A stretch of DNA of 16,108 nucleotides from IMG/VR virus record IMGVR_UViG_3300045988_124840; one strand, written 5' to 3'. Source of the stretch: a virus. Taxonomy: Duplodnaviria > Heunggongvirae > Uroviricota > Caudoviricetes. A program made the position numbers and the translations under genes. Below, piece after piece: positions 135-16,053 of the stretch; position 1 is the first letter of the stretch, and each line of letters opens with the position of its first letter. A model generated the notes under the pieces. That model made no database searches and had not been told where the DNA came from. It was given only the letters and a program-made list of their open reading frames with translations.

Positions 135-1148
135 TTACTCTACTGTGGACACTGTGTGGACACTCTCGACCTCAGTACCACCTCTTAGCGGATTAAGAGA
201 AATGGCGTCCTGAAGGTACTCTGGCGCAAAATGAGCGTAAACCATAGTTTGCTCAATCCGCGTGTGACCTAGTATCCGTTGTAGCGTGATAATACTTCCT
301 CCATTAATCATGAAATGAGTGGCAAAGCTGTGCCTTAGTGCATGTGTAGCTTGCCCCATTGGCAAATCCGGTTTTATTGCTTTCATTGTTCGTCTGAAGC
401 GAGGGTAATCAGCATCAGGGAATAAAAAACCTCGTTTGTTATCCGCGATCATTTTGGCAACAGCCTCTGAGATCGGGACGGTGCGTGGTTTGTTTGTTTT
501 CGTTTTAACAAACGTGACGCGGTTATGGATGATATTTTCTGCTTTCAAACGAGCTGCTTCTCCCCAACGTGCTCCAGTACTCAGGCAAAGAATCGCAATC
601 TTTTTGTTGTCGCCGTCAAGAGCAGCAAGCAGTAAGGCAATTTCTTCCTGCGTGAGATAGCCTGTGTCTGGTTTTTCCTCCTTAAGCCTTTTTGTCCCTC
701 TGATAGGGTGCTCACCAAAGAATAACTCCGCTTCAATCAGGGCTGTAAACATGCCGCTAATACATGTTAAATCACGATTGATACTCGAAGGTTTAATACC
801 CTGACTTCTTCGGGTGGCGCAGTACTGGCTGATAAGCGATTTCGTAATTTGAAATGCGCATGGGTCATTCGTTATTTTTGTGAAGATTTCAATTTTCCCA
901 AGATTAGATTTCCCATGCTCTTCGTGTTTACCCTTTAAATCCCACCAGATCTGTGTCAGCTCCGACAGACGTCGCTTGTCTGTTGGTTTTGATAGCCATT
1001 CTTTATTGTGGTGGTTGTACAACGTGTATTTCTCGAAAGCGACAGCTTCGCTTTTCTTATCAAACTTCCTACGGATGCGTTTTCCATTACGTCCAGTAGG
1101 GCGGATGTCCACTTCATATCGACCATCATCGAGTTTTTTGATTGCCAT
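135..1148 (-). CDS. int: P2-type tyrosine integrase (337 aa)
   Basis: 337-aa ORF with ATG at 1148. The C-terminal region has the tyrosine-recombinase pattern (ATHALRHSFATHF ... LGHTRIEQTMVYAHF). Size and position next to the att core, divergent from C, match P2 Int. Confidence 0.93.
   Translation of the reverse strand: MAIKKLDDGRYEVDIRPTGRNGKRIRRKFDKKSEAVAFEKYTLYNHHNKEWLSKPTDKRRLSELTQIWWDLKGKHEEHGKSNLGKIEIFTKITNDPCAFQITKSLISQYCATRRSQGIKPSSINRDLTCISGMFTALIEAELFFGEHPIRGTKRLKEEKPDTGYLTQEEIALLLAALDGDNKKIAILCLSTGARWGEAARLKAENIIHNRVTFVKTKTNKPRTVPISEAVAKMIADNKRGFLFPDADYPRFRRTMKAIKPDLPMGQATHALRHSFATHFMINGGSIITLQRILGHTRIEQTMVYAHFAPEYLQDAISLNPLRGGTEVESVHTVSTVE
144..163. promoter_or_regulatory. Tandem TGTGGACAC repeats, putative Int arm-type binding sites inside the int 3' end
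   Basis: TGTGGACAC occurs at 144..152 and 155..163, an 11-bp period. A similar pair, TGTGGTCA / TGTGGACG, lies at the other prophage end (15995..16013). Confidence 0.5.
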
Positions 1149-1263
1149 CAGAAAACCCTCCGAGTGGTGTGTTTTTTTGCGACTACTAATCGCTTTTTTC
1201 GTGGTGGCTGAAATTTAGCCACCAATAGTAGGCACTTGTGATGAATATATTCACGATGAATTG

Positions 1264-1563
1264 TTAACCAGTCTTTTGACCGGAGTGGGGCGACGTTGTT
1301 TCGTTTTGCCCAAAGTGTGCGAGAGCGGGCGCAATTTGCCCGGACTCAGGAGCGATCTGATTGGTCATGAACCATAAAGTGTATTTGGTGAATTGTGGGG
1401 TCTGCAGGATGTTCATCATGACATCTGTTGGAGGTGTTGAACGACCACTTTCATAGTAACTCAGCGTGCCATACGGAACCCCTGTTAAATCAGCAAGTTG
1501 TTGTCTGCTCAAATACTCTGATTTTCGCATTAAGACTATCTTCTCGCTTATCGTGTTTGACAT
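1264..1563 (-). CDS. C: Immunity repressor C (99 aa, helix-turn-helix)
   Basis: 99-aa ORF with ATG at 1563, divergent from cox. N-terminal HTH-like segment LSRQQLADLTGVPYGTLSYYE. Size and position match P2 repressor C. Confidence 0.9.
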   Translation of the reverse strand: MSNTISEKIVLMRKSEYLSRQQLADLTGVPYGTLSYYESGRSTPPTDVMMNILQTPQFTKYTLWFMTNQIAPESGQIAPALAHFGQNETTSPHSGQKTG

Positions 1564-1677
1564 GGTGTTTAGATCTCAATAGTATTTAGTTTAGATGTAG
1601 ATTGTTTAGTGCTTGGATGTGGGCACTAAAAGGCATTATAAGACATTAAACGCAATTCATGAGGGCTAGAGGACGAC
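1564..1677. promoter_or_regulatory. Lysogeny/lytic switch region between C and cox (Pe/Pc promoters with repressor operator repeats)
   Basis: Intergenic region between divergent C and cox. TTTAG(A/T) motifs recur at 1568, 1585, 1590 and 1605; TTTAGAT at 1568..1574 and 1590..1596 are 22 bp apart. Purine-rich RBS GAGGGCTAGAGGA precedes the cox ATG. Exact -35/-10 hexamers not assigned. Confidence 0.6.
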
Positions 1678-1953
1678 ATGAGCAAGCAAGTAACACTCAT
1701 GACTGATGCGATTCCTTATCAGGAGTTCGCAAAACTAATAGGAAAATCGACAGGAGCGGTTCGTCGGATGATCGATAAAGGAAAGCTGCCTGTAATTGAT
1801 ATGACCGATCCACAATCAGCTTCAGGTCGTGCAGGTGAATATTGGGTATACCTTCCGGCATGGAATAACGGACTAAAACTGGCTTATGAAAGCCGCCCTA
1901 AAGAGATTCGTGACGGCTGGTTGATGTGGTTAGGTCTCGGTGAACCACGTTAA
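1678..1953 (+). CDS. cox: Cox (91 aa): excision directionality factor and repressor of Pc
   Basis: 91-aa ORF, first gene of the rightward early operon, ATG at 1678 with upstream RBS. Size and position match P2 Cox. Confidence 0.9.
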   Translation: MSKQVTLMTDAIPYQEFAKLIGKSTGAVRRMIDKGKLPVIDMTDPQSASGRAGEYWVYLPAWNNGLKLAYESRPKEIRDGWLMWLGLGEPR

Positions 1954-1963
1954 GGAGAACCGT

Positions 1964-2134
1964 ATGAATGAGCCTCGTTGTATTGCTCAGTTACTGCGTA
2001 ACGAAAGCCCCAGGGCGATTGACTTCACCATCACCCACGGTAAGGGGCGTAAGGGAATCATTATCCGCACCAAAAAACAGAGTCCGTTAAAAAAGGCTCT
2101 GACCTTTCTGAAAAGCCGGAGGGTATGGAAATGA
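1964..2134 (+). CDS. Small early protein (P2 orf78-like, 56 aa)
   Basis: ATG at 1964 is preceded by AAGGAG (1952..1957). The track start at 1940 is GTG inside the cox 3' end. The stop overlaps the B start (ATGA). Confidence 0.7.
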   Translation: MNEPRCIAQLLRNESPRAIDFTITHGKGRKGIIIRTKKQSPLKKALTFLKSRRVWK

Positions 2135-2631
2135 CAGTGATGACGCTCAATCTCGTTGAAAAACAGCCAGCAGCTATGCGCCGGATAATTGGCAAGCATC
2201 TTGCCGTCCCTCGCTGGCAGGATACATGTGATTATTATAATCAGATGATGGAGCGCGAACGGCTAACGGTTTGCTTTCATGCACAGTTAAAACAGCGTCA
2301 CGCAACGATGCGTTTTGAAGAAATGAACGACGTCGAACGTGAACGGCTGGTTTGTGCAATTGATGAATTGCGTGGGGCATTCTCAAAACGCCGTCAGGTC
2401 GGCGCAAGTGAGTATGCATATATTAGTTTTTTAACAGTCAGTCAGCGTCGCACTTTATTTATGCACGCACGACTGACAGAAAAAGAATTCAACCAGCCAT
2501 ACTGGCGAATTAATGAAGAATCATGTTACTGGCGTGATGCTTTATTCCGTGCATTACGTGAATTATTCAGCCTGTTTGAGTATGCACCGACAATTCTGAC
2601 GTCGGTAAAACCAGAGCAATATCTGCATTAA
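2131..2631 (+). CDS. B: Replication protein B (166 aa; helicase-loader-like early protein)
   Basis: ATG at 2131 overlapping the orf78 stop, with GGAGGG RBS upstream. The 166-aa length matches P2 B. The track start at 2125 adds two residues. Confidence 0.85.
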   Translation: MTVMTLNLVEKQPAAMRRIIGKHLAVPRWQDTCDYYNQMMERERLTVCFHAQLKQRHATMRFEEMNDVERERLVCAIDELRGAFSKRRQVGASEYAYISFLTVSQRRTLFMHARLTEKEFNQPYWRINEESCYWRDALFRALRELFSLFEYAPTILTSVKPEQYLH

Positions 2632-2694
2632 GTAATTAATCAGAGTTTTTAACGCACTTAATTGTGCGGGGCTTCTTTTTGCCTGGAGAACGTC

Positions 2695-2919
2695 ATGCAT
2701 ACAGTTTCCGAAAATCAGTGCGGTAAATACGCATTACTGCTGCAACAGGCCAGAACCGAAGCACAGGCCGACGCAGCGACGCGCTTTTCTTCTCATCTTG
2801 ACGCCATGATTCGCCACATCACAAAGGCGGAGTTATCCCGCGTGGAGATAGTCGAGCTGCTCAGTCAGGAGTCGGAAAAATTTCACAATATCGGATTGTC
2901 TCGCGGGGAGGTGCTTTGA
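2695..2919 (+). CDS. Small early protein (P2 orf80-like, 74 aa)
   Basis: ATG at 2695 preceded by GGAGA. The track start at 2662 is TTG. The stop overlaps the next start. Confidence 0.65.
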
Positions 2920-3221
2920 TGTCCTGTTCTCGTTCAGTTGTATTACTGAATAACGCCTTAAAAATCACCGTTATGAAAAATGGCGATTTATCTCTTATTC
3001 AACTTGGTCTTGATAAAGAAAAACGCGAAATAACTGAGTCTGTTATCGCGATTTATCAGAACGAATTAAATCTCCTGTCTGATGTGGTCAATTTACTTGT
3101 TAAACGCGCTGTATTTCACAAGCAAATCTCCTCCGTGGATGAACTGACGAAATTAACGACAGAAATTGCCAGCTATTGCGCTGATGAATTTAAAAAACTT
3201 AACGACAAAAGGAGCTGGTAA
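2919..3221 (+). CDS. Small early protein (P2 orf81-like, 100 aa)
   Basis: ATG at 2919 overlapping the upstream TGA, with GGGGAGG RBS. Translationally coupled chain of small ORFs. Confidence 0.65.
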   Translation: MSCSRSVVLLNNALKITVMKNGDLSLIQLGLDKEKREITESVIAIYQNELNLLSDVVNLLVKRAVFHKQISSVDELTKLTTEIASYCADEFKKLNDKRSW

Positions 3222-3445
3222 TGCCGGACAACGTAGATTTTATTCAGGAACAACAGGCTGAATTACTGGAGCGTCAGATTAACGCGGCAAGGGTAAAACA
3301 TTGCGGTGCTTCTGCGCTGGTTTGCGAAGAGTGTGACGCGCCAATACCTGCTGCCCGTCGTGCGGCTTACCCGTCAGCCACGCGTTGTGTTTCCTGTCAG
3401 TCAGTCTTTGAAGCAAAAAACAAACATTACCGGAGAACGGCATGA
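3221..3445 (+). CDS. DksA/TraR-type C4 zinc-finger protein (P2 orf82-like, 74 aa)
   Basis: Two CxxC pairs (CEEC ... CVSC) separated by about 17 residues, the TraR/DksA zinc-finger pattern. GGAG RBS, TAATG stop/start overlap with orf81. Confidence 0.75.
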   Translation: MPDNVDFIQEQQAELLERQINAARVKHCGASALVCEECDAPIPAARRAAYPSATRCVSCQSVFEAKNKHYRRTA

Positions 3446-3717
3446 GTATTCGTATTGAAATTGGCGAACGTTATGTCGTTACCAGTGACAGCTTTCAGTT
3501 TATTCTCCACGAGAAAAAGAGAGCGGAAAGCGGTAAAAACGCCGGTCAGGAATGGCTGGCGGTGGTTGGTTATTACCCGAAATTAAGCCAGCTCGTTTCC
3601 GGCCTGATGCATCACGATATTCTGACCGGAAGCGCAAAGTCTTTTGCTGATTTAAACGCGCAGGTTGAGCAACTCAGCAAGCGTTGTTCAGAGGCTTTTG
3701 GCTCATATGGCCGTTAA
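3442..3717 (+). CDS. Small early protein (P2 orf83-like, 91 aa)
   Basis: ATG at 3442 overlaps the orf82 stop (ATGA). Its 3' end overlaps the start of A. Confidence 0.65.
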   Translation: MSIRIEIGERYVVTSDSFQFILHEKKRAESGKNAGQEWLAVVGYYPKLSQLVSGLMHHDILTGSAKSFADLNAQVEQLSKRCSEAFGSYGR

Positions 3718-5983
3718 AGCCTCCGGGCGTTTTGTCCCTCCGTCAGCATTTGCCGCAGGCACCGGTAAGACGTTTACCGGTGCTTATGCATGGAACGCGC
3801 CACGCGAGGCTGTCGGGCGCGAAAGACCCCTTACACGTGACGAGATGCGTCAGGTGCAAGGTGTTTTATCCACGATTAATCGCCAGCCTTACTTTTTGCG
3901 CTCGCTGTTTACTTCACGCTATGACTACATCCGGCGCAATAAAAGCCCGGTGCACGGGTTTTATTTCCTCACATCCACTTTTCAGCGTCGTTTATGGCCG
4001 CGCATTGAGCGCGTTAATCAGCGCCATGAAATGAACACCGACGCGTCGTTGCTGTTTCTGGCAGAGCGTGACCACTATGCGCGCCTGCCTGGAATGAATG
4101 ACAAGGAGCTGAAAAAGTTTGCCGCCCGTATCTCATCGCAGCTTTTCATAATGTATGAGGAACTCTGCGATGCCTGGGTGGATGCGCATGGCGAGAAAGA
4201 ATCGCTGTTTACGGATGAGGCGCAGGCTCACCTGTATGGTCATGTTGCTGGCGCTGCACGTGCTTTCAATATTTCCCCGCTCTACTGGAAAAAATACCGT
4301 AAAGGACAGATGACCACGAGGCAGGCATATTCTGCCATTGCCCGCCTGTTTAACGATGAGTGGTGGACTCATCAGCTTAAAGGCCAGCGTATGCGCTGGC
4401 ATGAGGCGTTACTGATTGCTGTCGGGGAGGTCAATAAAGACCGTTCTCCTTATGCCAGTAAACATGCCATTCGTGATGTGCGTGCACGCCGCCAGGCAAA
4501 TCTGGAATTTCTTAAATCGTGTGACCTTGAAAACAGGGAAACCGGCGAGCGCATCGACCTTATCAGTAAGGTGATGGGCAGTATTTCTAATCCTGAAATT
4601 CGCCGGATGGAGCTGATGAACACCATTGCCGGTATTGAGCGTTACGCCGCAGCAGAGGGTGATGTGGGGATGTTTATCACGCTGACCGCGCCGTCAAAGT
4701 ATCACCCGACACGTCAGGTCGGAAAAGGCGAAAGTAAAACCGTCCAGCTAAATCACGGCTGGAACGATGAGGCATTTAATCCAAAGGATGCGCAGCGTTA
4801 TCTCTGCCATATCTGGAGCCTGATGCGCACGGCATTCAAGGATAATGATTTACAGGTCTACGGTTTGCGTGTCGTCGAGCCACACCACGACGGAACGCCG
4901 CACTGGCATATGATGCTTTTTTGTAATCCACGCCAGCGTAACCAGATTATTGAAATCATGCGTCGCTATGCGCTCAAAGAGGATGGCGACGAAAGAGGAG
5001 CCGCGCGAAACCGTTTTCAGGCAAAACACCTTAACCGGGGCGGTGCTGCGGGATATATCGCGAAATACATCTCAAAAAACATCGACGGCTATGCACTGGA
5101 TGGTCAGCTCGATAATGATACCGGTAGGCCGCTGAAAGACACAGCTGCGGCTGTTACCGCATGGGCGTCAACGTGGCGCATTCCGCAATTTAAAACGGTT
5201 GGTCTGCCGACAATGGGGGCTTACCGTGAACTACGCAAATTGCCTCGCGGCGTCAGCATTGCTGATGAGTTTGACGAGCGCGTCGAGGCTGCACGCGCCG
5301 CTGCAGACAGTGGTGATTTTGCGTTGTATATCAGCGCGCAGGGCGGGGCAAATGTCCCGCGCGATTGTCAGACTGTCAGGGTCGCCCGTAGCCCGTCGGA
5401 TGACGTTAACGAGTACGAGGAAGAAGTCGAGAGAGTGGTCGGCATTTACGCGCCGCATCTCGGCGCGCGTCATATTCATATCACCAGAACGACGGACTGG
5501 CGCATTGTTCCGAAAGTGCCGGTCGTTGAGCCTTTGACTTTAAAAAGCGGCATCGCCGCGCCTCGGAGTCCTGTCAATAACTGTGGAAAGCTCACCGGTG
5601 GTGATACTTCGTTACCGGCTCCCACACCTTCTGAGCACGCCGCAGCCGTGCTTAATCTGGTTGATGACGGTGTTATCGAATGGAATGACCCGGAGGTCGT
5701 GAGGGCGCTCAGGGGCGCATTAAAACACGGCCTGAGAACACCAAACCGTCAGCAAAGAAACGGAAGCCCGTTAAAACCGAATGAAATAGCGCCATCGGCC
5801 AGGCTGACCCGGTCGGAGCGTATGCAAATTACCCGTATCCGCGTTGACCTTGCTCAGAACGGTATCAGGCCGCAGCGATGGGAGCTTGAGGCGCTGGCGC
5901 GTGGCGCGACCGTAAATTATTACGGGAAATCTTTCAATTATCAGGTCGCTGATGAGTGGCCTGGATTTTTGTTACCCATTTGA
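3707..5983 (+). CDS. A: Rolling-circle replication initiator/endonuclease A (HUH superfamily)
   Basis: Long ORF with an HUH-type motif (PHWHMMLF) and paired tyrosines (GYIAKYISKN), typical of P2 gpA-type nicking proteins. Start placed at the first ATG (3707, MAVKAS...). The track's 3665 start is TTG; an in-frame TTG at 3698 is also possible. Confidence 0.9.
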   Translation: MAVKASGRFVPPSAFAAGTGKTFTGAYAWNAPREAVGRERPLTRDEMRQVQGVLSTINRQPYFLRSLFTSRYDYIRRNKSPVHGFYFLTSTFQRRLWPRIERVNQRHEMNTDASLLFLAERDHYARLPGMNDKELKKFAARISSQLFIMYEELCDAWVDAHGEKESLFTDEAQAHLYGHVAGAARAFNISPLYWKKYRKGQMTTRQAYSAIARLFNDEWWTHQLKGQRMRWHEALLIAVGEVNKDRSPYASKHAIRDVRARRQANLEFLKSCDLENRETGERIDLISKVMGSISNPEIRRMELMNTIAGIERYAAAEGDVGMFITLTAPSKYHPTRQVGKGESKTVQLNHGWNDEAFNPKDAQRYLCHIWSLMRTAFKDNDLQVYGLRVVEPHHDGTPHWHMMLFCNPRQRNQIIEIMRRYALKEDGDERGAARNRFQAKHLNRGGAAGYIAKYISKNIDGYALDGQLDNDTGRPLKDTAAAVTAWASTWRIPQFKTVGLPTMGAYRELRKLPRGVSIADEFDERVEAARAAADSGDFALYISAQGGANVPRDCQTVRVARSPSDDVNEYEEEVERVVGIYAPHLGARHIHITRTTDWRIVPKVPVVEPLTLKSGIAAPRSPVNNCGKLTGGDTSLPAPTPSEHAAAVLNLVDDGVIEWNDPEVVRALRGALKHGLRTPNRQQRNGSPLKPNEIAPSARLTRSERMQITRIRVDLAQNGIRPQRWELEALARGATVNYYGKSFNYQVADEWPGFLLPI

Positions 5984-6243
5984 GTAAAAATGCAGCGTGA
6001 TTTTATATGCCTTTGAATGGATTATGCGAAGCGCCTCTAAGGCAGATGAGGAGCAATAGCATGCTGAAGTAGAAGGCTAAATTGTATTGAATCGCTAGCA
6101 TGTAATTTAAAGCAGCTATTTGATTCGAGTCATAAAAGAGCATCTATTTCGGCTAATAAAACCATTGCGAGTGACCTTTTGTCGAAGCATAATTCATCTC
6201 GAGCGAAGTCTTGCTAGTCTTTCATCGGAATGATGACAGGCGC

Positions 6244-6273
6244 AAAAAAACCACCCTGGCAGGTGGTTTTTTT
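6244..6273. terminator. Bidirectional intrinsic terminator
   Basis: AAAAAAACCACC / CTGGCA loop / GGTGGTTTTTTT: a perfect hairpin flanked by an A-tract and a T-tract, so it can terminate in either direction. It lies downstream of A (+) and directly downstream of the minus-strand small ORF at 6286..6399. Confidence 0.8.
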
Positions 6274-6285
6274 GTTTGAAGCATA

Positions 6286-6399
6286 CTAAAGAATAATACT
6301 TACATGGATATTACTGACGTTTACTGACAAACCACTTGGACTACCATATGGATAGCCAAAGAGGGCCAGAACGAGAATGCAGTAATAGCACTTCTTCAT
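6286..6399 (-). CDS. Hypothetical small hydrophobic peptide (37 aa, MKKCYYCILVLALFGYPYGSPSGLSVNVSNIHVSIIL)
   Basis: Not in the ORF track (too short). ATG at 6399..6397 is preceded on the minus strand by a near-consensus RBS AGGAGG with a 4-nt spacer. Hydrophobic N-terminal stretch; TAG stop at 6288..6286 followed by the terminator. Hand-translated. Confidence 0.4.
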   Translation of the reverse strand: MKKCYYCILVLALFGYPYGSPSGLSVNVSNIHVSIIL

Positions 6400-6971
6400 A
6401 TCTCCTCCTGTAAGCAGAGGGCAATTTCCGCCGATATATGCGCTTCTAAGGCGGAGTTACTATTTAGCGAAGTCTTGCCCTGAAATAATGCTCTGTTTAA
6501 ACGCAAAGTGATCTGGCATATCACCGAACAGAGAGCCTGAACAACACAACATATAGTATGTCGTTGTTTCTGGTTGCATTTTATGTTGTGTAATCCTGGT
6601 TTTGCATCAAGGATGTTTGAGCTTTTTTTGATATAGCTCAAAGTAAAAAGCAGAGACTACGGATGATAAGGTATTGAAAGCAATGTAAATTTTTTAAAGT
6701 TATTGGCGGCTAAAAAATGCACGGTTTCAATATGGTGGACTTAAATAAGCAATTAAAAAAGTCATAAATATCACTAAAATCATGGTGTTACGTTTTTTTT
6801 GTGGGAGCTGCGGTGACGCTTAAGTTGATTTGTCATTAAATAAGCCGTGCATGCAACAAGTGAATGTTTTTGCATGCGTCGGGGATGCCCGTTCCGGCTG
6901 CTTGCGGTCAGAGCTGGTGCGGATCCATAGTATCTATGCAACTGCATTAAAACCGCCACATGAAGCGGGCG

Positions 6972-6990
6972 GGCGAGGCGGGGAAAGCAC
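6972..6990. other. cos site: 19-nt P2-type cohesive end GGCGAGGCGGGGAAAGCAC
   Basis: Exact match to the P2/P4 cohesive-end sequence as I remember it. It is flanked on the left by a GC-richer segment (about 6800..6971), consistent with the cosR packaging region. Confidence 0.8.
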
Positions 6991-7150
6991 TGCGCGCAAA
7001 ATGTTCTTGAAATATTTGTGACATAAGCTAAGACACAAAATGATTGAAGGGCAGAGCAAATCCTACAGTCCTATGCTATTGTCTCATGTAATGCAGATAA
7101 GTTGAAAATTATCTTAAAATATAAGAGTAAAGACATTAAAAGGATTGGTT

Positions 7151-9412
7151 ATGAATAATAACTCTAAGTTATTAAGCTCTATCTCGGTTGAATCTGATTT
7201 CGAGAACCTTATAAAACTATATGCAAATGAGTTATTTGGTGGTGAAACATATCTGATCGGTGGTCCTTGGGATAATGGAAAGGATTTGGTAATAAAAAAG
7301 GGGAATAGAGAGTTAAAGCAAGCTGTACAAATATCTATTCAAGAGAAAAATATTGAAAGTAAGATTGCTCAAGATATTAAAAAAGTGGCGAAATTGGTTG
7401 ATGATCATTATTACCCGCCTGTATTATATTTTTTTTGGAGTCATTCAATATCTGAGCATTTATTGGATAAGATAAGAACAAATGCTCTTAAGGAAGATTT
7501 GATTAGATTGGAGTTTTATGATGCCAAACGGATCTCTCAAGATATTACAGATAAATACCCAGGGTTATTGAATTACTTAATAAAAGATATACATAAGATA
7601 AGTTCTAATACTGAAGATGCAATTAACTTGCAACAAAGAGCATTTTATGAATATTTATTGTTAAGCAAAGATAGTGCTAATTTAAAAAATGAAATAATAA
7701 AAGCTAGTATTATGTCTAATTTATATGATGGCGGGAAGTCTGCTGATGATATTCTAGAGAATCTAAAAGGTGTTAGTCTTACAAAACGTAGTTTACAGGG
7801 TAGACTGCAAAACCTAATTCATCAAAATAAAATTAGATTGAATGATGGTATATATAGCCTGTCACCAGAGGAAATTAAAAAGCTTGAGAATATAAATCTC
7901 CGTGAAATTGTCAGAAAAGAAGAGTTGTTATCAGTAATAAATAATGAGTTGCCCAGAAATACAAGTAAGAATCTGGCTGTTCAAGTTGTTGATTTAATAA
8001 TAAAGGCTTATGAAGAATCAATAAATGTCCAATTAACAGAAAGTAAATTTGAGCCTCCAAAATTACAGATATTCAAAACTATAGTACATAATTTAAAGGT
8101 GTTGATACGGCAGGAATATGATTTGGATGATGAGTCTTCGGATGCTTTAGCAAAAAAGCTAATGGAGTTGGCTGGTCAAAATGACTATTTATCCGAGCAT
8201 TGCTCTGCTAAATTATGTGTGAATCTTTTAAGTGATCGGAAATTAGAGAAATATATTGAAAATAAAAATTTTTATATCTACTTTGATGCGCCTGTTCTTA
8301 TTCCATATTTGATAACTCTTATGTTTGGAGATTTTGAGCTTTTTGATAAGTCGATTAAAAATATAAATTTACTGAGAGAGTGCATAAATCCCCTCAAAAA
8401 TAAACATCTGAGAGTTTCTAATGAACATTTTGAAGAAACTGCAAGGCACTACTCTGAAGCTGAAAAATTAAGTCAGTTTGTAACTGAAGATTTAATTAGT
8501 CAACTTGGTGAGTCGAAAAATGTATACTTTAATGTTTATATGCGGTGGAAAAACAAACAGCCTAAACGTACAGATTTTTACGATTTTACTTATGCTTTTC
8601 TAGGGTTGGATAAAGATGATATTTATGCGGGGTATAAGCATGACACATTTGCGCAATGCATTCATAATTTACTAGCGTCAGCAAATATTGTTGTAATTGA
8701 TAATAAAGACTCGGTGTCACAAGACTTTGTATTTAAAATAAAGCAAAAACTTAAAAGGGATTTGAATTCTTCACGTCCCGTTCGAGCCATAGAAAATGAT
8801 GTTATATGTGCTGCAACTTTGAGTGATGAAACCCTACATCTTGATTCCAATGGTTACTTCAGTACTCCCATGCTAATAACACTTGATAGATCTCAATATC
8901 TATTGAGAAGCATAGTAAGAAATGAAAGGAGACATGCTGAATGGTTGGTTTATACCCCTCAAAGAGCAATTGAACGTCTTTCCTTGGTGGGTTTAAAAAT
9001 ATCATCGGAATCGTTAAAGGATGGTGTTTTAGCAACCATATCAGAAGAATATTTCTTTAAAGAAAGTTCCAGTAGTTTGATTGATACTTTGGCTATTATC
9101 ATTGGAGATAATCAAGCAAGGCAAGGAGATGTTATTAGGCTTGCATCGCTTTTAAAAAGAAAGGTCAATGAGGAATCTATTGAGAATTCAGAAATTGATA
9201 TTGAACACTATAATAACATTAGTTATGTGCTTCTTTTCATTCATCGTGAATTTAAATCTGAATTTTCAAATATAATAAAAATTTTTGCTGAGGATAGTAG
9301 GCGAGATAAACTGGTTGAAGTTTTGTTATCCACTATTCAAGGAGTTTTTGATGAGAGTAAAAAGGAAATCTTGCGCTCAAATATAGGACGGTTGTTGGCT
9401 GAAATGGGATGA
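7151..9412 (+). CDS. Hypothetical AT-rich cargo protein (753 aa); possible N-terminal Mrr-like PD-(D/E)xK nuclease fold, rest unknown; candidate anti-phage defence protein
   Basis: Single long ORF with codon usage unlike the P2 backbone (AT-rich, Lys/Asn/Ile-rich). ATG at 7151 preceded by AAAGGA with a 6-nt spacer; the track start at 7145 is TTG. N-terminal segment FENLIKLYANELFGGETYLIGGPWDNGKDLVI ... QAVQISIQEK resembles the D-x-G-x-D ... Q-x-K core of Mrr-type restriction-endonuclease domains. No Walker A motif seen. Function is inferred from context only. Confidence 0.75.
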   Translation: MNNNSKLLSSISVESDFENLIKLYANELFGGETYLIGGPWDNGKDLVIKKGNRELKQAVQISIQEKNIESKIAQDIKKVAKLVDDHYYPPVLYFFWSHSISEHLLDKIRTNALKEDLIRLEFYDAKRISQDITDKYPGLLNYLIKDIHKISSNTEDAINLQQRAFYEYLLLSKDSANLKNEIIKASIMSNLYDGGKSADDILENLKGVSLTKRSLQGRLQNLIHQNKIRLNDGIYSLSPEEIKKLENINLREIVRKEELLSVINNELPRNTSKNLAVQVVDLIIKAYEESINVQLTESKFEPPKLQIFKTIVHNLKVLIRQEYDLDDESSDALAKKLMELAGQNDYLSEHCSAKLCVNLLSDRKLEKYIENKNFYIYFDAPVLIPYLITLMFGDFELFDKSIKNINLLRECINPLKNKHLRVSNEHFEETARHYSEAEKLSQFVTEDLISQLGESKNVYFNVYMRWKNKQPKRTDFYDFTYAFLGLDKDDIYAGYKHDTFAQCIHNLLASANIVVIDNKDSVSQDFVFKIKQKLKRDLNSSRPVRAIENDVICAATLSDETLHLDSNGYFSTPMLITLDRSQYLLRSIVRNERRHAEWLVYTPQRAIERLSLVGLKISSESLKDGVLATISEEYFFKESSSSLIDTLAIIIGDNQARQGDVIRLASLLKRKVNEESIENSEIDIEHYNNISYVLLFIHREFKSEFSNIIKIFAEDSRRDKLVEVLLSTIQGVFDESKKEILRSNIGRLLAEMG

Positions 9413-9426
9413 TTTCTTGGTTATTG

Positions 9427-9459
9427 AACGGCACTATGGTCGTTGCTTATAGTGCCGTT
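9427..9459. terminator. Stem-loop between the convergent cargo gene and Q (possible terminator)
   Basis: AACGGCACTA ... TAGTGCCGTT, a 10-bp perfect stem with a 13-nt loop, followed by only TT. A second short hairpin TGCCATT-ATG-AATGGCA lies at 9471..9487. Neither has a strong U-tract. Confidence 0.35.
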
Positions 9460-9503
9460 TTAAGGTGTCGTGCCATTATGAATGGCATATCCGAGTTTAT
9501 ATA

Positions 9504-10538
9504 TTAGGTATCGCAAGTATCTAGTGAGTAGTTTTTAAAGCGGATGACCTCCTGACCGAGCCAGCCGTTTATCTCGCGGATCCTGTCCTGTAACGGGATA
9601 AGCTCATTGCGGACAAAGACCTTTGCCACTTTCTCAATATCGCCCAGTGACCCGACGTTCTCCGGCTTGCCGCCCATCAACTGAAAGGGGATGCGGTGCG
9701 CGTCCAGTAGGTCAGCGGCGCTGGCTTTTTTGATATTAAAAAAATCGTCCTTCGTTGCGACTTCACTGAGCGGGATAATTTTAATGCCGTCGGCTTTCCC
9801 CTGTGGGGCATAGAGAAACAGATTTTTAAAGTTGTTGCGGCCTTTCGACTTCACCATGTTTTCGCGGAGCATTTCGATATCGTTGCGATCCTGCACGGCA
9901 TCAGTGACGTACATGATGTATCCGGCATGTGCGCCGTTTTCGTAATACTTGCGGCGGAACAGCGTGGCCGACTCATTCAGCCAGGCAGAGTTAAGGGCGC
10001 TGAGATATTCCGGCAGGCCGTACAACTCCTGATTAATATCCGGCTCCAGCAGGTGAAACACGGAGCCGGGCGCGAAGGCTGTCGGTTCGTTGAAGGACGG
10101 CACCCACCAGTAAACATCCTCTTCCACCCCACGGCGGGTATATTTTGCCGGTGAGGTTTCCAGTCTGATGACCTTACCGGTGGTGCTGTAACGCTTTTCC
10201 AGAAACGCATTACCGAACACCAGAAAATCCAGCACAAAGCGGCTGAAATCCTGTTGTGAAAGCCACGGATGCGGGATAAATGTCGAGGCCAGAATATTAC
10301 GTTTGACGTAAATCGGTGAGCTGTGATGTACGGCAGCACGCAGGCTTTTTGCCAGACCGGTAAAGCTGACCGGTGGCTCATACCATCTGCCGTTACTGAT
10401 GCACTCGACGTAATCCAGAATGTCACGGCGGTCGAGTACCGGCACCGGCTCACCAAAGGTGAATGCCTCCATTTTCGGGGCGCTGGCGGTCATTGTTTTT
10501 GCCGCAGGTTGCGGTGTTTTCCCTTTTTTCTTGCTCAT
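9504..10538 (-). CDS. Q: Portal protein Q (344 aa)
   Basis: 344-aa ORF with ATG at 10538, lying near cos on the minus strand as in P2. Its start overlaps the stop of the upstream P-derived frame by 1 nt (TGATG). Length matches P2 gpQ. Confidence 0.9.
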   Translation of the reverse strand: MSKKKGKTPQPAAKTMTASAPKMEAFTFGEPVPVLDRRDILDYVECISNGRWYEPPVSFTGLAKSLRAAVHHSSPIYVKRNILASTFIPHPWLSQQDFSRFVLDFLVFGNAFLEKRYSTTGKVIRLETSPAKYTRRGVEEDVYWWVPSFNEPTAFAPGSVFHLLEPDINQELYGLPEYLSALNSAWLNESATLFRRKYYENGAHAGYIMYVTDAVQDRNDIEMLRENMVKSKGRNNFKNLFLYAPQGKADGIKIIPLSEVATKDDFFNIKKASAADLLDAHRIPFQLMGGKPENVGSLGDIEKVAKVFVRNELIPLQDRIREINGWLGQEVIRFKNYSLDTCDT

Positions 10539-10745
10539 CAGTAAAACTCCAGAATGGTGGATGTCAGCGGGGTGCTGATACCGGCGGTGAGTGGCTCATT
10601 TAACAGGGCGTGCATGGTCGCCCAGGCGAGGTCGGCGTGGCTGGCTTCCTCGCTGCGGCTGGCCTCATAGGTGGCGCTGCGTCCGCTGCTGGTCATGGTC
10701 TTGCGGATAGCCATAAACGAGCTGGTGATGTCGGTGGCGCTGACG
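10538..10745 (-). pseudogene. P: Truncated terminase large-subunit gene P (C-terminal ~68 codons only)
   Basis: Minus-strand frame ending ...LTAGISTPLTSTILEFY with its stop overlapping the Q start, the P2 P–Q arrangement. Upstream of about 10745 the same frame runs antisense to FII-like coding sequence, so only the 3' end of P is left. The upper boundary is approximate. Confidence 0.5.
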
Positions 10746-10750
10746 TCGTA

Positions 10751-11071
10751 TTCCCGGATTCGGTTATCTGGGAGCTTTACGCCGCAACCGGTGTGGATGC
10801 CGTCCCGATTCGTTTTGCTGGCTCTTACCAGCGCGACGATACCGGCGAAACGGTGGCCGTCGAGGTGGTCATGCGTGGCCGTCAGAAAGAAATCGACACC
10901 GGCGAGGGTAAACAGGGAGAAGACACCGAGTCGAAAATCTCCGTGGTCTGCACCTATTTCCGGCTGACGATGGACGGTAAGGAGCTGGTCGAAATCGACA
11001 CCATTAACATGATTGAGAAGGTGAACGGCGTCGACCGGCTGGAGCAACACCGCCGCAATATCGGCCTGTGA
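10751..11071 (+). pseudogene. FII: 5'-truncated tail tube gene FII (C-terminal ~105 codons)
   Basis: The C-terminal part of the + ORF (FPDSVIWELYAATGVDAVPIRFAGSYQRDD ... VNGVDRLEQHRRNIGL) is protein-like, matches the P2 FII C-terminus as I remember it, and sits in the expected place just upstream of E. The first ~47 residues of the track ORF look like non-coding read-through. No start codon or RBS for a full-length FII. The 5' boundary is approximate. Confidence 0.6.
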
Positions 11072-11127
11072 TTTTCATCCGGTCAGCCAGGCTGACCGGT
11101 TAACCCCGATTCAGAAGTGAGAAAACC

Positions 11128-11403
11128 ATGAACAAAGAAAATGTGATTACCCTGGACAATCCGGTCAAGCGTGGTGAGCAGGTTATCGAACAGGTCACGC
11201 TGATGAAACCCAATGCCGGGACGCTGCGCGGTGTCAGTCTGGCAGCGGTCGCGAACTCCGAAGTCGATGCACTGATTAAGGTGCTGCCGCGCATGACAGC
11301 ACCGATGCTGACCGAGCAGGAGGTCGCCGCGCTGGAACTGCCTGACCTTGTGGCGCTGGCCGGTAAGGTGGTCGGTTTTTTGTCGCCGAACTCGGTGCAG
11401 TGA
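11128..11403 (+). CDS. E: Tail assembly chaperone E (91 aa)
   Basis: 91-aa ORF directly upstream of the tape-measure gene. Contains the slippery T-run near its 3' end (see E+E'). Confidence 0.88.
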   Translation: MNKENVITLDNPVKRGEQVIEQVTLMKPNAGTLRGVSLAAVANSEVDALIKVLPRMTAPMLTEQEVAALELPDLVALAGKVVGFLSPNSVQ

Positions 11404-11555
11404 CGTTTCCGAAAAATCTGTCGGTCGATGACCTGATGGCGGATGTGGCTGTGATATTTCACTGGCCGCCATCAGAACTGTACCCCATGAGCCTGACCGA
11501 ACTCATCACATGGCGCGAAAAGGCGCTCCGGCGAAGCGGAAACACGAATGAGTAA
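11128..11555 (+). CDS. E+E': E+E' tail chaperone fusion made by programmed -1 ribosomal frameshift
   Basis: Slippery heptamer-like run GGTTTTTTG at 11374..11382 (six T's at 11376..11381). The -1 frame stays open from there to TAA at 11553..11555, overlapping the T start by 8 nt. This parallels the conserved G/GT-type chaperone frameshift upstream of tape-measure genes. Confidence 0.75.
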
Positions 11556-13995
11556 CAATGTAAAATTACAGGTATTGCTCAGGGCTGTTGACCAGGCATC
11601 CCGCCCGTTTAAATCCATCCGCACAGCGAGTAAGTCGCTGTCGGGGGATATCCGGGAAACACAAAAATCACTGCGCGAGCTGAACGGTCACGCATCCCGT
11701 ATTGAGGGATTCCGCAAGACCAGTGCACAGCTCGCCGTGACTGGTCATGCACTTGAAAAGGCACGGCAGGAGGCCGAAGCCCTTGCCACACAGTTTAAAA
11801 ATACCGAACGACCGACCCGTGCTCAGGCGAAAGTGCTGGAATCCGCAAAGCGAGCGGCGGAGGACTTACAGGCGAAATATAACCGCCTGACGGATTCCGT
11901 TAAACGCCAGCAGCGGGAACTGGCCGCTGTGGGAATTAATACCCGCAATCTTGCACATGATGAGCAGGGGCTGAAAAACCGTATCAGTGAAACCACCGCA
12001 CAGCTTAACCGTCAGCGCGACGCACTGGCGCGTGTCAGTGCACAACAGGCAAAACTTAACGCAGTAAAACAGCGTTATCAGGCCGGAAAGGAACTGGCCG
12101 GAAATATGGCCTCAGTGGGCGCTGCCGGTGTGGGGATTGCTGCTGCGGGAACGATGGCCGGTGTTAAGCTGCTGATGCCCGGTTATGAGTTTGCGCAGAA
12201 AAACTCAGAATTGCAGGCTGTGCTCGGTGTGGCAAAAGACTCCGCCGAAATGGCCGCATTACGCAAACAGGCGCGCCAGCTCGGCGACAATACCGCCGCC
12301 TCGGCAGATGATGCAGCCGGTGCGCAGATTATTATTGCGAAAGCCGGTGGGGATGTTGATGCCATTCAGGCGGCAACGCCGGTCACGCTGAACATGGCGC
12401 TGGCGAACCGCCGCACGATGGAAGAAAACGCCGCCCTGCTGGTGGGGATGAAATCCGCCTTTCAGCTTTCAAACGATAAGGTCGCTCATATCGGGGATGT
12501 TCTCTCCATGACGATGAACAAAACCGCCGCCGATTTTGACGGCATGAGCGATGCGCTGACCTATGCCGCACCTGTGGCAAAAAATGCCGGTGTCAGCATT
12601 GAAGAAACCGCCGCAATGGTCGGGGCGCTGCATGATGCAAAAATCACAGGCTCAATGGCGGGGACGGGAAGCCGTGCCGTGTTAAGCCGCCTGCAGGCAC
12701 CGACGGGAAAAGCGTGGGATGCACTGAAAGAGCTTGGTGTGAAAACCTCAGACAGCAAGGGAAACACCCGACCAGTATTTACCATTCTGAAAGAAATGCA
12801 GGCCAGTTTTGAGAAAAACCGGCTCGGTACTGCCCAGCAGGCCGAATACATGAAAACCATTTTCGGGGAGGAGGCCAGCTCAGCCGCCGCTGTGCTGATG
12901 ACTGCCGCGTCAACCGGAAAGCTGGACAAACTGACCGCTGCGTTTAAAGCCTCAGACGGGAAGACCGCCGAGCTGGTAAATATCATGCAGGACAACCTCG
13001 GCGGTGACTTTAAGGAGTTTCAGTCCGCTTATGAGGCGGTGGGGACTGACCTGTTTGACCAGCAGGAAGGCGCGCTGCGTAAGCTCACGCAGACGGCCAC
13101 AAAGTATGTGTTAAAACTTGACGGCTGGATACAGAAAAACAAATCACTGGCGTCAACCATCGGCCTCATTGCCGGTGGCGCACTGGCGCTTACTGGCATC
13201 ATCGGTGCCATTGGCCTTGTAGCCTGGCCGGTTATCACTGGCATCAATGCCATTATCGCGGCAGCAGGCGCAATGGGGGCAATCTTCACGACGGTTAGCA
13301 GTGCTGTTATGACGGCCATCGGGGCGATTAGCTGGCCGGTTGTGGCCGTGGTGGCCGCCATTGTCGCCGGGGCGTTGCTTATCCGTAAATACTGGGAGCC
13401 TGTCAGCGCATTCTTTGGCGGTGTGGTTGAAGGGCTGAAAGCGGCATTTGCGCCGGTGGGGGAACTGTTCACGCCACTGAAGCCGGTGTTTGACTGGCTG
13501 GGTGAAAAGTTACAGGCCGCGTGGCAGTGGTTTAAAAACCTGATTGCCCCGGTCAAAGCCACCCAGGACACCCTGAACCGTTGCCGTGACACGGGCGTCA
13601 TGTTCGGGCAGGCACTGGCTGACGCGCTGATGCTGCCGCTTAATGCGTTCAACAAACTGCGCAGTGGCATTGACTGGGTACTGGAAAAACTCGGTGTTAT
13701 CAACAAAGAGTCAGACACACTTGACCAGACCGCCGCCAGAACTCAAGCCGCCACGTATGGCAGCGGTGGTTATATTCCGGCGACCAGCTCTTATGCAGGC
13801 TATCAGGCTTATCAGCCGGTCACGGCACCGGCTGGCCGCTCTTATGTAGACCAGAGTAAAAACGAATATCACATCAACCTGACGGGTGGTACTGTGCCGG
13901 GGACACAGCTTGACCGCCAGTTACAGGATGCGCTTGAAAAATACGAGCGGGATAAACGTGCGCGCGCCCGTGCCAGCATGATGCATGACGGTTAA
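11548..13995 (+). CDS. T: Tail tape measure protein T (815 aa)
   Basis: 815-aa ORF with a coiled-coil-like N-terminal half and a long Gly/Ala/Ile-rich hydrophobic block (LASTIGLIAGGALALTGIIGAIGLVAWPVITGINAIIAAAGAMGAIF...), typical of tape-measure proteins. Size matches P2 gpT. Confidence 0.92.
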   Translation: MSNNVKLQVLLRAVDQASRPFKSIRTASKSLSGDIRETQKSLRELNGHASRIEGFRKTSAQLAVTGHALEKARQEAEALATQFKNTERPTRAQAKVLESAKRAAEDLQAKYNRLTDSVKRQQRELAAVGINTRNLAHDEQGLKNRISETTAQLNRQRDALARVSAQQAKLNAVKQRYQAGKELAGNMASVGAAGVGIAAAGTMAGVKLLMPGYEFAQKNSELQAVLGVAKDSAEMAALRKQARQLGDNTAASADDAAGAQIIIAKAGGDVDAIQAATPVTLNMALANRRTMEENAALLVGMKSAFQLSNDKVAHIGDVLSMTMNKTAADFDGMSDALTYAAPVAKNAGVSIEETAAMVGALHDAKITGSMAGTGSRAVLSRLQAPTGKAWDALKELGVKTSDSKGNTRPVFTILKEMQASFEKNRLGTAQQAEYMKTIFGEEASSAAAVLMTAASTGKLDKLTAAFKASDGKTAELVNIMQDNLGGDFKEFQSAYEAVGTDLFDQQEGALRKLTQTATKYVLKLDGWIQKNKSLASTIGLIAGGALALTGIIGAIGLVAWPVITGINAIIAAAGAMGAIFTTVSSAVMTAIGAISWPVVAVVAAIVAGALLIRKYWEPVSAFFGGVVEGLKAAFAPVGELFTPLKPVFDWLGEKLQAAWQWFKNLIAPVKATQDTLNRCRDTGVMFGQALADALMLPLNAFNKLRSGIDWVLEKLGVINKESDTLDQTAARTQAATYGSGGYIPATSSYAGYQAYQPVTAPAGRSYVDQSKNEYHINLTGGTVPGTQLDRQLQDALEKYERDKRARARASMMHDG

Positions 13996-14009
13996 GGAGG
14001 TGACGAAAA

Positions 14010-14489
14010 ATGATGCTCGCGTTAGGTATGTTTGTTTTTATGCGCCAGACGCTGCCACACCAGACCATGCAGCGTGAATCAGATTATCGCTGGCCGTCAA
14101 ATTCCCGTATCGGTAAACGGGATGCCTTTCAGTTTCTCGGCGTTGGCGAGGAAAACATCACGCTTGCCGGTGTGCTTTATCCCGAGCTGACCGGCGGAAA
14201 GCTGACGATGACCACGCTCAGGCTGATGGCAGAGGAAGGTCGGGCGTGGCCGTTGCTGGATGGCACCGGCATGATTTACGGCATGTATGTCATCAGCAGG
14301 GTGAGTGAAACAGGGAGTATTTTCTTTGCAGACGGCACACCCCGAAAAATTGATTTTACGCTGTCGCTCACCCGCGTTGATGAATCACTGGCCGCGCTTT
14401 ATGGCGATATCGGTAAACAGGCGGAATCGCTCATCGGTAAGGCTGGCAGTATGGCGACTAAATTCACGGGTATGACGGGGGCGGGATAA
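14010..14489 (+). CDS. U: Tail protein U (159 aa)
   Basis: 159-aa ORF with AAGGAGG RBS at 13994..14000. Position between T and D and size match P2 gpU. Confidence 0.88.
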   Translation: MMLALGMFVFMRQTLPHQTMQRESDYRWPSNSRIGKRDAFQFLGVGEENITLAGVLYPELTGGKLTMTTLRLMAEEGRAWPLLDGTGMIYGMYVISRVSETGSIFFADGTPRKIDFTLSLTRVDESLAALYGDIGKQAESLIGKAGSMATKFTGMTGAG

Positions 14490-15652
14490 TGCTGGATGCG
14501 CTGACATTTGATGCAGGCAGTACGCTGACACCGGATTACATGCTGATGCTCGACAGCAGGGATATTACCGGCAATATCAGCGACCGTCTGATGAGCATGA
14601 CCCTGACGGATAACCGGGGCTTTGAGGCTGACCAGCTTGATATTGAACTGAACGATGCCGACGGGCAGGTCGGGCTGCCGGTTCGTGGCGCTGTCCTGAC
14701 GGTGTATATCGGCTGGAAAGGTTTTGCCCTGGTATGCAAAGGGAAATTTACCGTTGATGAGGTTGAACACCGGGGCGCGCCGGATGTGGTTACCATCCGC
14801 GCCCGGAGTGCAGATTTTCGCGGGACGCTCAATTCCCGCCGGGAAGGCTCATGGCATGACACCACGCTCGGTGCGATTGTTGAGGCGATAGCCTCCCGTA
14901 ACAGGCTGGAAGCCAGTGTCGCGCCGTCACTGGCCGGAATTAAAATCCCGCACATCGACCAGTCGCAGGAGTCTGATGCAAAATTCCTGACCCGCCTTGC
15001 TGAACGCAACGGCGGTGAGGTGTCGGTAAAAATGGGAAAATTGTTGTTTCTCAAAGCGGGGCAGGGGGTGACGGCCAGTGGTAAAAAAATCCCGCAGATT
15101 ACCATCACCCGCAGCGACGGCGACCGTCATCATTTTGCGATTGCTGACCGTGGAGCCTACACCGGCGTAACGGCAAAGTGGTTACACACCAAAGACCCGA
15201 AGCCGCAAAAGCAGAAGGTAAAACTGAAACGCAAAAAGAAAGAGAAACACCTGCGCGCACTGGAGCACCCGAAAGCGAAACCGGTCAGGCAGAAGAAAGC
15301 GCCAAAAGTACCGGAAGCGCGCGAAGGTGAATACATGGCCGGTGAGGCTGACAACGTTTTTGCCCTGACCACGGTATATGCCACGAAAGCACAGGCCATG
15401 CGTGCTGCTCAGGCGAAGTGGGATAAACTGCAACGGGGCGTTGCGGAGTTCTCCATCATCCTGGCTACCGGTCGTGCAGATATTTACACGGAAACACCGG
15501 TCAGAGTGTCAGGCTTTAAGCGCGTCATAGACGAGCAGGACTGGACAATCACTAAGGTGACACATTTTCTGAATAATAGCGGCTTCACGACGTCCTTGGA
15601 GCTTGAGGTCAGGCTTTCTGATGTGGAGTACGAAACAGAAGATGATGAGTGA
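14489..15652 (+). CDS. D: Tail protein D (387 aa; late-gene-control D)
   Basis: 387-aa ORF whose start overlaps the U stop (ATGA-type junction). Size and position match P2 gpD. Contains a Lys-rich low-complexity linker (KPQKQKVKLKRKKKEKH...). Confidence 0.88.
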   Translation: MLDALTFDAGSTLTPDYMLMLDSRDITGNISDRLMSMTLTDNRGFEADQLDIELNDADGQVGLPVRGAVLTVYIGWKGFALVCKGKFTVDEVEHRGAPDVVTIRARSADFRGTLNSRREGSWHDTTLGAIVEAIASRNRLEASVAPSLAGIKIPHIDQSQESDAKFLTRLAERNGGEVSVKMGKLLFLKAGQGVTASGKKIPQITITRSDGDRHHFAIADRGAYTGVTAKWLHTKDPKPQKQKVKLKRKKKEKHLRALEHPKAKPVRQKKAPKVPEAREGEYMAGEADNVFALTTVYATKAQAMRAAQAKWDKLQRGVAEFSIILATGRADIYTETPVRVSGFKRVIDEQDWTITKVTHFLNNSGFTTSLELEVRLSDVEYETEDDE

Positions 15653-15733
15653 TGTTTTGTTTTTATCTGTTTGTTTTATAAGGATAAATTAACTAAAATG
15701 GCACCATTAACAAAACCGGAAGAGGTGCTCGCG

Positions 15734-15952
15734 ATGTTTCATTGTCCTTTATGCCAGCATGCCGCACATGCGCGTACAAGCCGCTATATCACTGACACGA
15801 CAAAAGAGCGTTATCACCAGTGCCAGAACGTGAATTGCAGCGCCACGTTCATCACTTATGAGTCGGTACAGCGATACATCGTGAAGCCGGGAGAAGTCCA
15901 CGCCGTGAGGCCGCACCCGTTGCCGTCAGGGCAGCAAATTATGTGGATGTAA
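15734..15952 (+). CDS. ogr: Ogr late transcription activator (72 aa, zinc finger)
   Basis: From the internal ATG at 15734 the product is MFHCPLCQHAAHARTSRYITDTTKERYHQCQNVNC..., with the C-x2-C ... C-x4-C zinc-binding pattern of P2 Ogr. The track start at 15671 adds 21 residues and is probably not used. Confidence 0.9.
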   Translation: MFHCPLCQHAAHARTSRYITDTTKERYHQCQNVNCSATFITYESVQRYIVKPGEVHAVRPHPLPSGQQIMWM

Positions 15953-15962
15953 TTACAAACAG

Positions 15963-15989
15963 AAAGCCCCTCAGTCGAGGGGCTTTTTT
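15963..15989 (+). terminator. Intrinsic terminator downstream of ogr
   Basis: AAAGCCCCTC / AGTC loop / GAGGGGCTTT followed by a T-run (GC-rich stem plus U-tract). Confidence 0.8.
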
Positions 15990-15994
15990 GTCGA

Positions 15995-16013: not shown

Positions 16014-16053
16014 TGACCAGAAATAAATCCTTTTATTTCAATTTGTTGTACGT

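Follow-up and report, generated by a model that had tools for sequence, protein, structure and literature searches.

Location and content of the cassette

The sequence analysed here, IMG/VR record IMGVR_UViG_3300045988_124840 (16,108 nucleotides, called the window throughout), is a whole P2-like prophage lying between 27-bp att repeats at 29–55 and 16054–16080, and it carries a cassette with a single gene for a 753-amino-acid (aa) protein between the cohesive-end site (cos) and the portal gene Q. The order along the window is A, cos, cargo, Q (Table 1). The variable segment is almost certainly an accessory-gene cassette that occupies the portal-proximal part of the cos-adjacent variable hotspot between A and Q (gpA–gpQ) of P2-like phages.

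Breakpoints were mapped on the P2 reference (NC_001895), and the window was aligned to P2 and to four other relatives. The backbone of the element is 97–98% identical to P2. The P2 cohesive-end 19-mer, GGCGAGGCGGGGAAAGCAC, has a single exact match in the window, far beyond chance; P2 homology continues past it through TGCGCGC and ends at 6997/6998, resuming at 9515/9516 within the final four codons of Q. Both breakpoints were reproduced with the four other relatives, at 6997 (or 7006) and 9516. The GC content of the interval from cos to the Q stop codon is 0.32, compared with 0.50–0.60 in the backbone. In P2 itself, cosL occupies 1–19, the tQ terminator 160–181 and Q begins at 187, for a native cos-to-Q gap of 167 bp. 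In the window, the cassette stands in place of the roughly 170-bp native spacer, of tQ and of the final Q codons.

The final four codons of Q and its stop (9504–9515) are part of the variable segment, and the C-terminal tail reads ...YSL-DTCDT-stop in the window versus ...YSL-ETDNG-stop in relatives. Across cassettes, the last zero to five codons after the conserved ...YSL vary with the cassette (DTCDT, ETDNG, ESN, DDN or an immediate stop), and the right boundary of the hotspot therefore lies within the coding sequence of an essential gene.

A preliminary description of this region had named the 19-mer as the P2 cos sequence, ended the backbone-like sequence at about 6998 with AT-rich cargo beginning a few bases past the cohesive end, and filled the cos–Q interval with about 2.5 kb of foreign DNA holding the 753-aa gene; the alignments bear out all of this, with the cargo absent from P2 and starting at cos+7. 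Its right breakpoint, put at about 9420–9503, has to be moved into Q, and the P2 gap that it gave as on the order of 100 bp is indeed short, though the figure was too low.

Table 1. Features of the window and of the cargo protein, with corresponding P2 positions (NC_001895)
Feature	Position	Strand	P2 position	Basis
attP core, int, C, cox, B ... A	29–5967		24356–30294	alignment
Gene A	3665–5983			
A-to-cos interval, AT-rich module free of open reading frames	5984–6935	.		open reading frame scan, annotation, Rfam
Conserved cos core: ~36 bp to the left, 19-nt cohesive end, TGCGCGC	6936–6997	+		113-flank profile; both P2 ends
P2 right end including cosR	6943–6990		33546–33593	alignment
Cohesive-end sequence, 19 nt	6972–6990	+		exact match; annotated cosL/cosR in NC_001895
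cosL and TGCGCGC	6972–6997		1–26	alignment
Variable cargo cassette, 2518 bp	6998–9515	+		breakpoints versus P2 and four relatives; composition
Shine-Dalgarno AAGGA, 6 nt before ATG 7151	7140–7144	+		direct reading
Cargo gene, 753 aa, WP_053286240.1	7151–9412	+		sole open reading frame of the cassette; RefSeq coding sequence in 1218KP
Strong hairpin then UUUU, likely cargo-gene terminator replacing tQ	9426–9461	+		RNA folding
Portal gene Q, 344 aa, convergent with the cargo gene	9504–10538	-		open reading frame list; 97.8% identity to P2 Q from 9516 on
Q and last 216 bp of P	9516–10754		199–1437	alignment
Remnant of terminase gene P, 3' 216 bp only; junction to FII at 10751–10754	10538–10754	-		P2 alignment
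3' part of FII, E, T, U, D, ogr, attP	10751–16080		19053–24382	alignment
Mrr-like PD-(D/E)xK nuclease domain (predicted)	residues ~1–135			model
Winged helix (predicted), helical region after it	residues ~178–237			model
PIN-like domain (predicted), helical C-terminus after it	residues ~374–620			model

The cassette carries signals of its own at both ends of its gene. Next to the likely terminator lies a second hairpin (9470–9488), and both hairpins are stable and stand between the convergent cargo gene and Q. RNA folds of 9410–9505 on the two strands had z-scores of -3.5 and -4.7; the terminator scan had missed the hairpins at 9426–9461 and 9470–9488, which were later found by folding. A scan against Rfam detected no family in or near the cassette.

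The cos core and packaging

Across 113 distinct cos flanks, conservation is at least 90% from about -36 to +7 around cos and then collapses, and the window agrees with the consensus over this stretch save for one mismatch at a less conserved position. Conservation around cos is thus confined to a core of about 55–60 bp that ends at cos+7. A three-way alignment (P4 row offset by 19 nt) revealed within this core a block of about 55 bp common to P2 and P4. The conserved stretch corresponds to the 55-bp P2/P4 cos that PMC9594776 cites from Ziermann & Calendar 1990.

The satellite P4 offers a close comparison for the position of the cassette. P4 satellites are packaged by the P2 terminase, and the sequence of P4-like satellites becomes AT-rich and unrelated at exactly cos+7. 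Reference P4 has its hotspot genes gop, beta and cII on the cos+7 side and psu on the other. Because these genes occupy that side of cos and divergence begins at cos+7, the Q-side slot of P2 is, by sequence, the positional counterpart of the P4 hotspot. The P4 hotspot (psu-cos-[gop, beta, cII]-int) shares with the window the side of cos (the left genome end), the end of conservation after cos + (T/C)GCGCGC and the AT-rich cargo that follows; it differs in belonging to a satellite element and in having int as its right flank, where the window has Q. We found no cassette common to P2 Q-side and P4 hotspot cargo in our sample, which agrees with the near absence of P2–P4 exchange reported by de Sousa et al. 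2026 (PMC13586616, Nucleic Acids Research).

The phage pro147 (NC_028896) provides a viable relative with cargo in the same slot. Its cos (5826–5844) is followed by a retron Ec48-family reverse transcriptase (RT) and effector (6170–8064) and then by the portal gene (8107–9126), and the phage could be induced, with plaques on four strains of E. coli (PMC5285337). Like the window, pro147 has its Q-side cargo convergent with Q and of similar size (2.26 kb vs 2.5 kb); unlike the window, it is a viable phage with a known retron and an RT gene on the A side, whereas the window is defective and its A side geneless. Reverse transcriptases thus lie on both sides of cos in pro147 (4075–8064): that of the A side is an RNA-directed DNA polymerase of 515 aa, and that of the Q side is the retron Ec48-family RT, accompanied by a membrane effector. 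A further relative, a 186-like prophage of Rahnella in which P, O, N, M and L are complete, shows a cos-like 19-mer and TGCGCGC, then a homolog 71% identical to the cargo protein, then Q.

Since plaque-forming pro147 carries its retron at this position, cargo at cos+7 appears compatible with packaging, and by analogy with pro147 and the P4 satellites the same would hold for the window cassette. That packaging tolerates cargo here thus finds support in both a viable phage and satellites that diverge at the same base. The earlier proposal that an insertion must spare the packaging signal fits the intact cos core of the window; it applies to an intact ancestor and not to the defective element itself.

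On visual inspection, a (C/T)CTGAGCG-like motif preceded by an AT-rich stretch stands about 45 bp to the right of cos in many native P2 spacers and in some P4-like elements, and we located this right-hand motif 40–55 bp past cos in IMG/VR loci L033, L061, L073, L085, L060, L062 and L117. P4-like elements have a similar TCTGAGCG about 45 bp to the left of cos. The window and several cargo-bearing elements are without the right-hand copy, so it is apparently not required.

Other cargo in the cos–Q interval

We scanned IMG/VR for the exact cos 19-mer and brought 120 loci into one orientation; tblastn served to place Q and A in them. The cos–Q gap was of native size in 84 of the 92 IMG/VR loci with an exact cos and a downstream Q (157–173 bp to the Q stop, mostly 169 bp), while eight (8.7%) had 0.9–3.2 kb of extra DNA in the interval. 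Close relatives therefore do not already have an interval of about 2.5 kb, as the preliminary description had expected. The A-to-cos side in the surveyed loci measured 897–4190 bp, with a median of 2718 bp. The window cassette itself was present in one of 5426 complete E. coli genomes (strain 1218KP).

With the eight loci, the window and enterotoxigenic E. coli (ETEC) prophage ETEC1730, we counted ten different Q-side cassettes at one boundary. All of them start directly after cos + TGCGCGC (in one variant, CGCGCTC), and they are mutually unrelated in sequence. The other cassettes have a GC content of 0.33–0.37 and are mostly transcribed towards Q; ETEC1730, a prophage that seems intact, has 1.4 kb of different cargo in the same slot. 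Matches to PADLOC models identified genes of these other cassettes as Drt2 (E = 5e-205), a type IV retron RT (RT_IV; E = 7e-177), PD-T4-4_A (E = 1.6e-110), Avs5 (E = 3e-61), a PD-T4-4/HEC-02-like ATPase and PDC-S02, whereas three Q-side cassettes had no PADLOC model match. On the strength of these identities and of an occupancy of eight in 92, the cos–Q interval is a recurrent minority slot that mostly holds defence systems.

The slot belongs to a hotspot that has already been published, so its position is not unusual in kind. Rousset et al. 2022 (PMC9122126) define the P2 hotspot, also known as the tin/old or TO region, as the whole cos-proximal gpA–gpQ region, and de Sousa et al. 2026 use the same definition. 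The locus table of PMC9122126 includes WP_053286240 as a sole 'hypothetical' gene and also lists the ETEC protein WP_053285577. Our literature search found WP_053286240 in that supplementary table only and in the main text of none of the papers searched. The window cassette lies between A and Q beside cos, and the content at this place varies among syntenic relatives; it shares with the published hotspot its location, its varying content and its known defence systems as neighbouring occupants. These papers treat gpA–gpQ as one locus, whereas the window cargo is on the Q side, in the minority state seen in about 9% of loci, with a geneless tin/old side. Neither a distinction between the sides of cos nor a boundary shared with P4 was found in the text consulted in PMC9122126 and PMC13586616.

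Virulence cargo was also seen on the other side of cos: phage P2 of E. coli O157:H43 T22 (KC618326) carries cdtABC at 311–2453, on the A side.

Decay of the carrier prophage

The window prophage is defective and, to judge from its gene content, unable to package itself. P2 positions 1438–19052 (17.6 kb) are absent, with 4 bp common to both sides of the junction, and with them most of P, all of O, N, M and L, the lysis, baseplate and fibre genes, FI and part of FII. The int, C, cox, B and A genes, cos, Q, the tail genes T, U and D, ogr and both att sites were retained. Since the terminase and capsid genes lie within this deletion, the window cos would be unusable without a helper phage.

We did not find the P'/FII' deletion junction of the window as a single piece in the complete E. 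coli genomes searched. E. coli 1218KP (NZ_CM173878, 17133–27210) carries the cassette in a remnant at the same locus with other deletions: A has lost its 5' part, and P, of which 282 bp survive, is fused to J, I and a fibre fragment. Positions 6700–9600 of the window are 100% identical to 1218KP, and the cargo gene is intact in both. A deletion endpoint common to the two was considered and rejected, as P retains 282 bp in one and 216 bp in the other. The remnants have different deletions and a common cassette, so the cassette is older than at least one of the deletions. This suggests that the accessory gene was kept intact while the surrounding phage decayed, at least partly independently in two remnants.

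The cargo protein and its family

The structural model of the 753-aa protein predicts an N-terminal Mrr-like nuclease domain, a winged helix and a PIN-like domain, the last two each followed by a helical region (Table 1). The modelled PIN-like domain has the three-layer alpha/beta/alpha arrangement with a five-stranded parallel sheet that characterizes the PIN fold. All 62 family members compared (about 20% identity to the window protein) have D379, E429, N457, D550 and D579 unchanged, and of these residues D379, E429, D550 and D579 are the predicted acidic residues of a PIN active site. The wider family has the classic PIN first strand LDTxxLL, and one relative matches PIN_12 of Pfam at E = 0.0055, below the cutoff, whereas the window protein has no such match. 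The N-terminal domain retains a DGxD...Q.T motif. Compared with the catalytic domains of Mrr and type IV restriction enzymes, the protein matches no Pfam model at threshold and its Mrr-like motif has no clear lysine position.

Close homologs were detected in 46 clusters in Gammaproteobacteria. A profile search of 1.84 billion representatives recovered 509 at E ≤ 0.001, mostly full-length matches of 760–780 aa. In about nine longer relatives, the match to the profile starts only at position ~150 and a different domain forms the N-terminus. In two relatives, the alternative N-terminus matches the N-terminus of PADLOC candidate PDC-S60 (E = 1e-47 to 1e-49) and, weakly, DUF4062. A subset of 800–840 aa (P0132 and P0146, also P0166–P0191) has another domain in place of the Mrr-like N-terminus, and in two of them this domain matches residues of PDC-S60 that make up its N-terminal 170–190.

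The genes encoding these homologs occur in varied settings. One in Klebsiella lies beside a resolvase and a umuC-like gene, those in Vibrio lie in integrase islands with DndB and other defence-like genes, and one in Pectobacterium is a lone gene among metabolic genes. A homolog in the Enterobacter cloacae complex (54% identical; 8001–10271 of its locus) stands alone between baeR and trhP. This Enterobacter gene has no phage genes nearby, and its chromosomal neighbourhood is that of the E. coli prophage. From these neighbourhoods, the homologs display single-gene mobility, and from the comparisons above the 753-aa protein belongs to an undescribed family that has neither a Pfam nor a PADLOC model.

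Proposed function and alternative explanations

On balance, the best account of the whole is a hotspot cassette that encodes a single-protein anti-phage nuclease. The assignment of the 753-aa protein to single-protein anti-phage defence is itself putative, and we hold it with about the same or slightly less confidence. A defence role seems most likely in view of the location, the predicted domain make-up and the single-gene mobility. In published tests, six of eight randomly chosen uncharacterized loci of P4 hotspots protected against phages.

We suggest that the architecture of the region would permit such cassettes to come and go. Only the core around cos is conserved, and the native spacer of about 170 bp past it carries nothing but the terminator of the Q operon, so that foreign cassettes could be swapped without harm to packaging. 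The exchange would take place through recombination at the cos core on one side and at the 3' end of Q on the other, a route that we infer. The window cassette supplies its own ribosome-binding site, terminator hairpins and substitute for the final Q codons. The putative product, constitutively expressed, would cut nucleic acid of the phage or the host once infection is sensed. Its conserved core activity would reside in the PIN active site, with the winged helix and helical regions serving in sensing or nucleic-acid binding, and the N-terminal Mrr-like nuclease may act as an exchangeable second effector. The prophage later lost 17.6 kb of morphogenesis genes, and the cargo gene is still intact.

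Several observations weigh against this account. The 753-aa protein had no hit, or only noise, against PADLOC v2, Pfam, NCBIfam and PHROGs; a profile search of Protein Data Bank (PDB) sequences returned noise only; and full-length Foldseek searches of the PDB and BFVD yielded nothing at E ≤ 0.001. The Mrr-like motif is atypical: Q60-x-S62 lacks a lysine at +2, and the family does not conserve the alternative Q64-x-K66. The N-terminal domain may be one that binds and does not cut. Upstream of the cargo gene, the promoter scan gave no convincing sigma-70 site, and its hits were no more numerous than in shuffled sequence. Packaging of the window cassette is extrapolated from relatives, the carrier being a dead prophage. 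In the published work, the machine-learning defence signal is weaker for uncharacterized P2 genes (15–32%) than for those of P4, and genes of other kinds, including partition systems and cytolethal distending toxin, also occur in the hotspot.

We consider the strongest competing explanation unlikely while giving it real weight: the insertion in the hotspot is genuine and its gene is not a defence gene, being instead, for example, a nuclease for host takeover independent of superinfection, an addiction or toxin module that stabilizes the prophage, or a regulator. The cassette consists of a single open reading frame with no antitoxin-like small frame adjacent to it, and VapC-like PIN toxins are proteins of 130 aa that come with an antitoxin, whereas the 753 aa of the window protein also include a fused winged helix and two helical regions. 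A multidomain protein of about 750 aa whose N-terminus is swapped with a defence-candidate domain is typical of defence and not of VapC toxins, and every identifiable occupant of the slot is a defence system.

The decayed state of the carriers raises a second possibility, namely that the cassette entered after the prophage had decayed, its position beside cos then being incidental and uninformative on packaging. Both E. coli carriers, the window and 1218KP, are defective remnants, and contigs with an identical protein are too short to give context. We nevertheless regard late entry as improbable, as the 71%-identical homolog sits in the cos+7-to-Q slot of a Rahnella prophage that appears complete, the start base is common to other cassettes (one in viable pro147, another in a seemingly intact ETEC prophage), and the window and 1218KP share the cassette despite their different deletions. 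The notion that the long interval is ancestral, with the 167 bp of P2 a derived deletion and nothing inserted, can draw on homologs of the gene at the same position in two genera and is barely credible given that 91% of loci are short, including divergent ones with Q only 75–83% identical and a short spacer that is mutually conserved, that the cargoes of the slot are mutually unrelated, that GC content is so far below that of the backbone and that homologs of the gene also occur outside phages.

Returning to a defence cassette in the hotspot, the feature is probably a new anti-phage gene in a known kind of place and not a new type of element. The candidate is a single-gene defence protein with predicted catalytic residues, from a broad family for which Pfam, NCBIfam, PHROGs and PADLOC have no model. 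The position of the cassette refines the map of the cos-adjacent P2 hotspot into two slots split by cos, of which the Q-side slot starts at the same base as the P4 hotspot. More tentatively, and with a little less than even confidence in the two parts taken jointly, we propose a new single-gene defence family (a winged helix and PIN core with an exchangeable N-terminus, either Mrr-like or of DUF4062/PDC-S60 type; about 500 cluster representatives) together with a distinct cos+7 slot shared position for position by P2 and P4, such that gpA–gpQ would be two sites separated by cos, one filled in about 9% of loci and the other nearly always.

Natural variation at this boundary also marks the functional right edge of the P2/P4 packaging signal, which is useful for the design of P2/P4 cosmids and transducing particles, and an intact accessory gene in two decayed remnants illustrates the domestication of phage cargo. 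These results refine current understanding of the hotspot and neither overturn it nor describe a new phenomenon.

The A-to-cos interval and the attachment site

The tin/old position, between A and cos, had been described as carrying different AT-rich material and as a second site of cargo. The interval is AT-rich, and the second claim is not supported, since it contains no credible open reading frame or annotated gene and thus no demonstrable coding cargo. The 988 bp from 5984 to 6971 have no open reading frame longer than 81 aa and none conserved between variants. Directly after gene A, the module at 5984–6750 (up to 6820) is 85–100% conserved in 150 of the 5426 complete E. coli genomes and in nine IMG/VR P2-like loci, and no annotated feature lies in it in the 150 genomes that share it. 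Rfam gave no match at threshold in this interval, only sub-threshold RNAI-like hits at 6242–6352 on the minus strand (26 bits vs a cutoff of 47). The module could be a non-coding RNA, a regulatory region or a decayed gene.

At the ends of the element, the 27-bp att repeat (attR 16054–16108 / attL 29–55) overlaps the 3' part of the CyaR/RyeE small RNA gene. The CyaR match at the attR end scored 67.7 bits, though cut by the end of the window, and was the sole Rfam hit at gathering score. From this overlap, the prophage therefore lies at cyaR beside ogrK and trhP (yegQ), the locus of the ogrK remnant in K-12.

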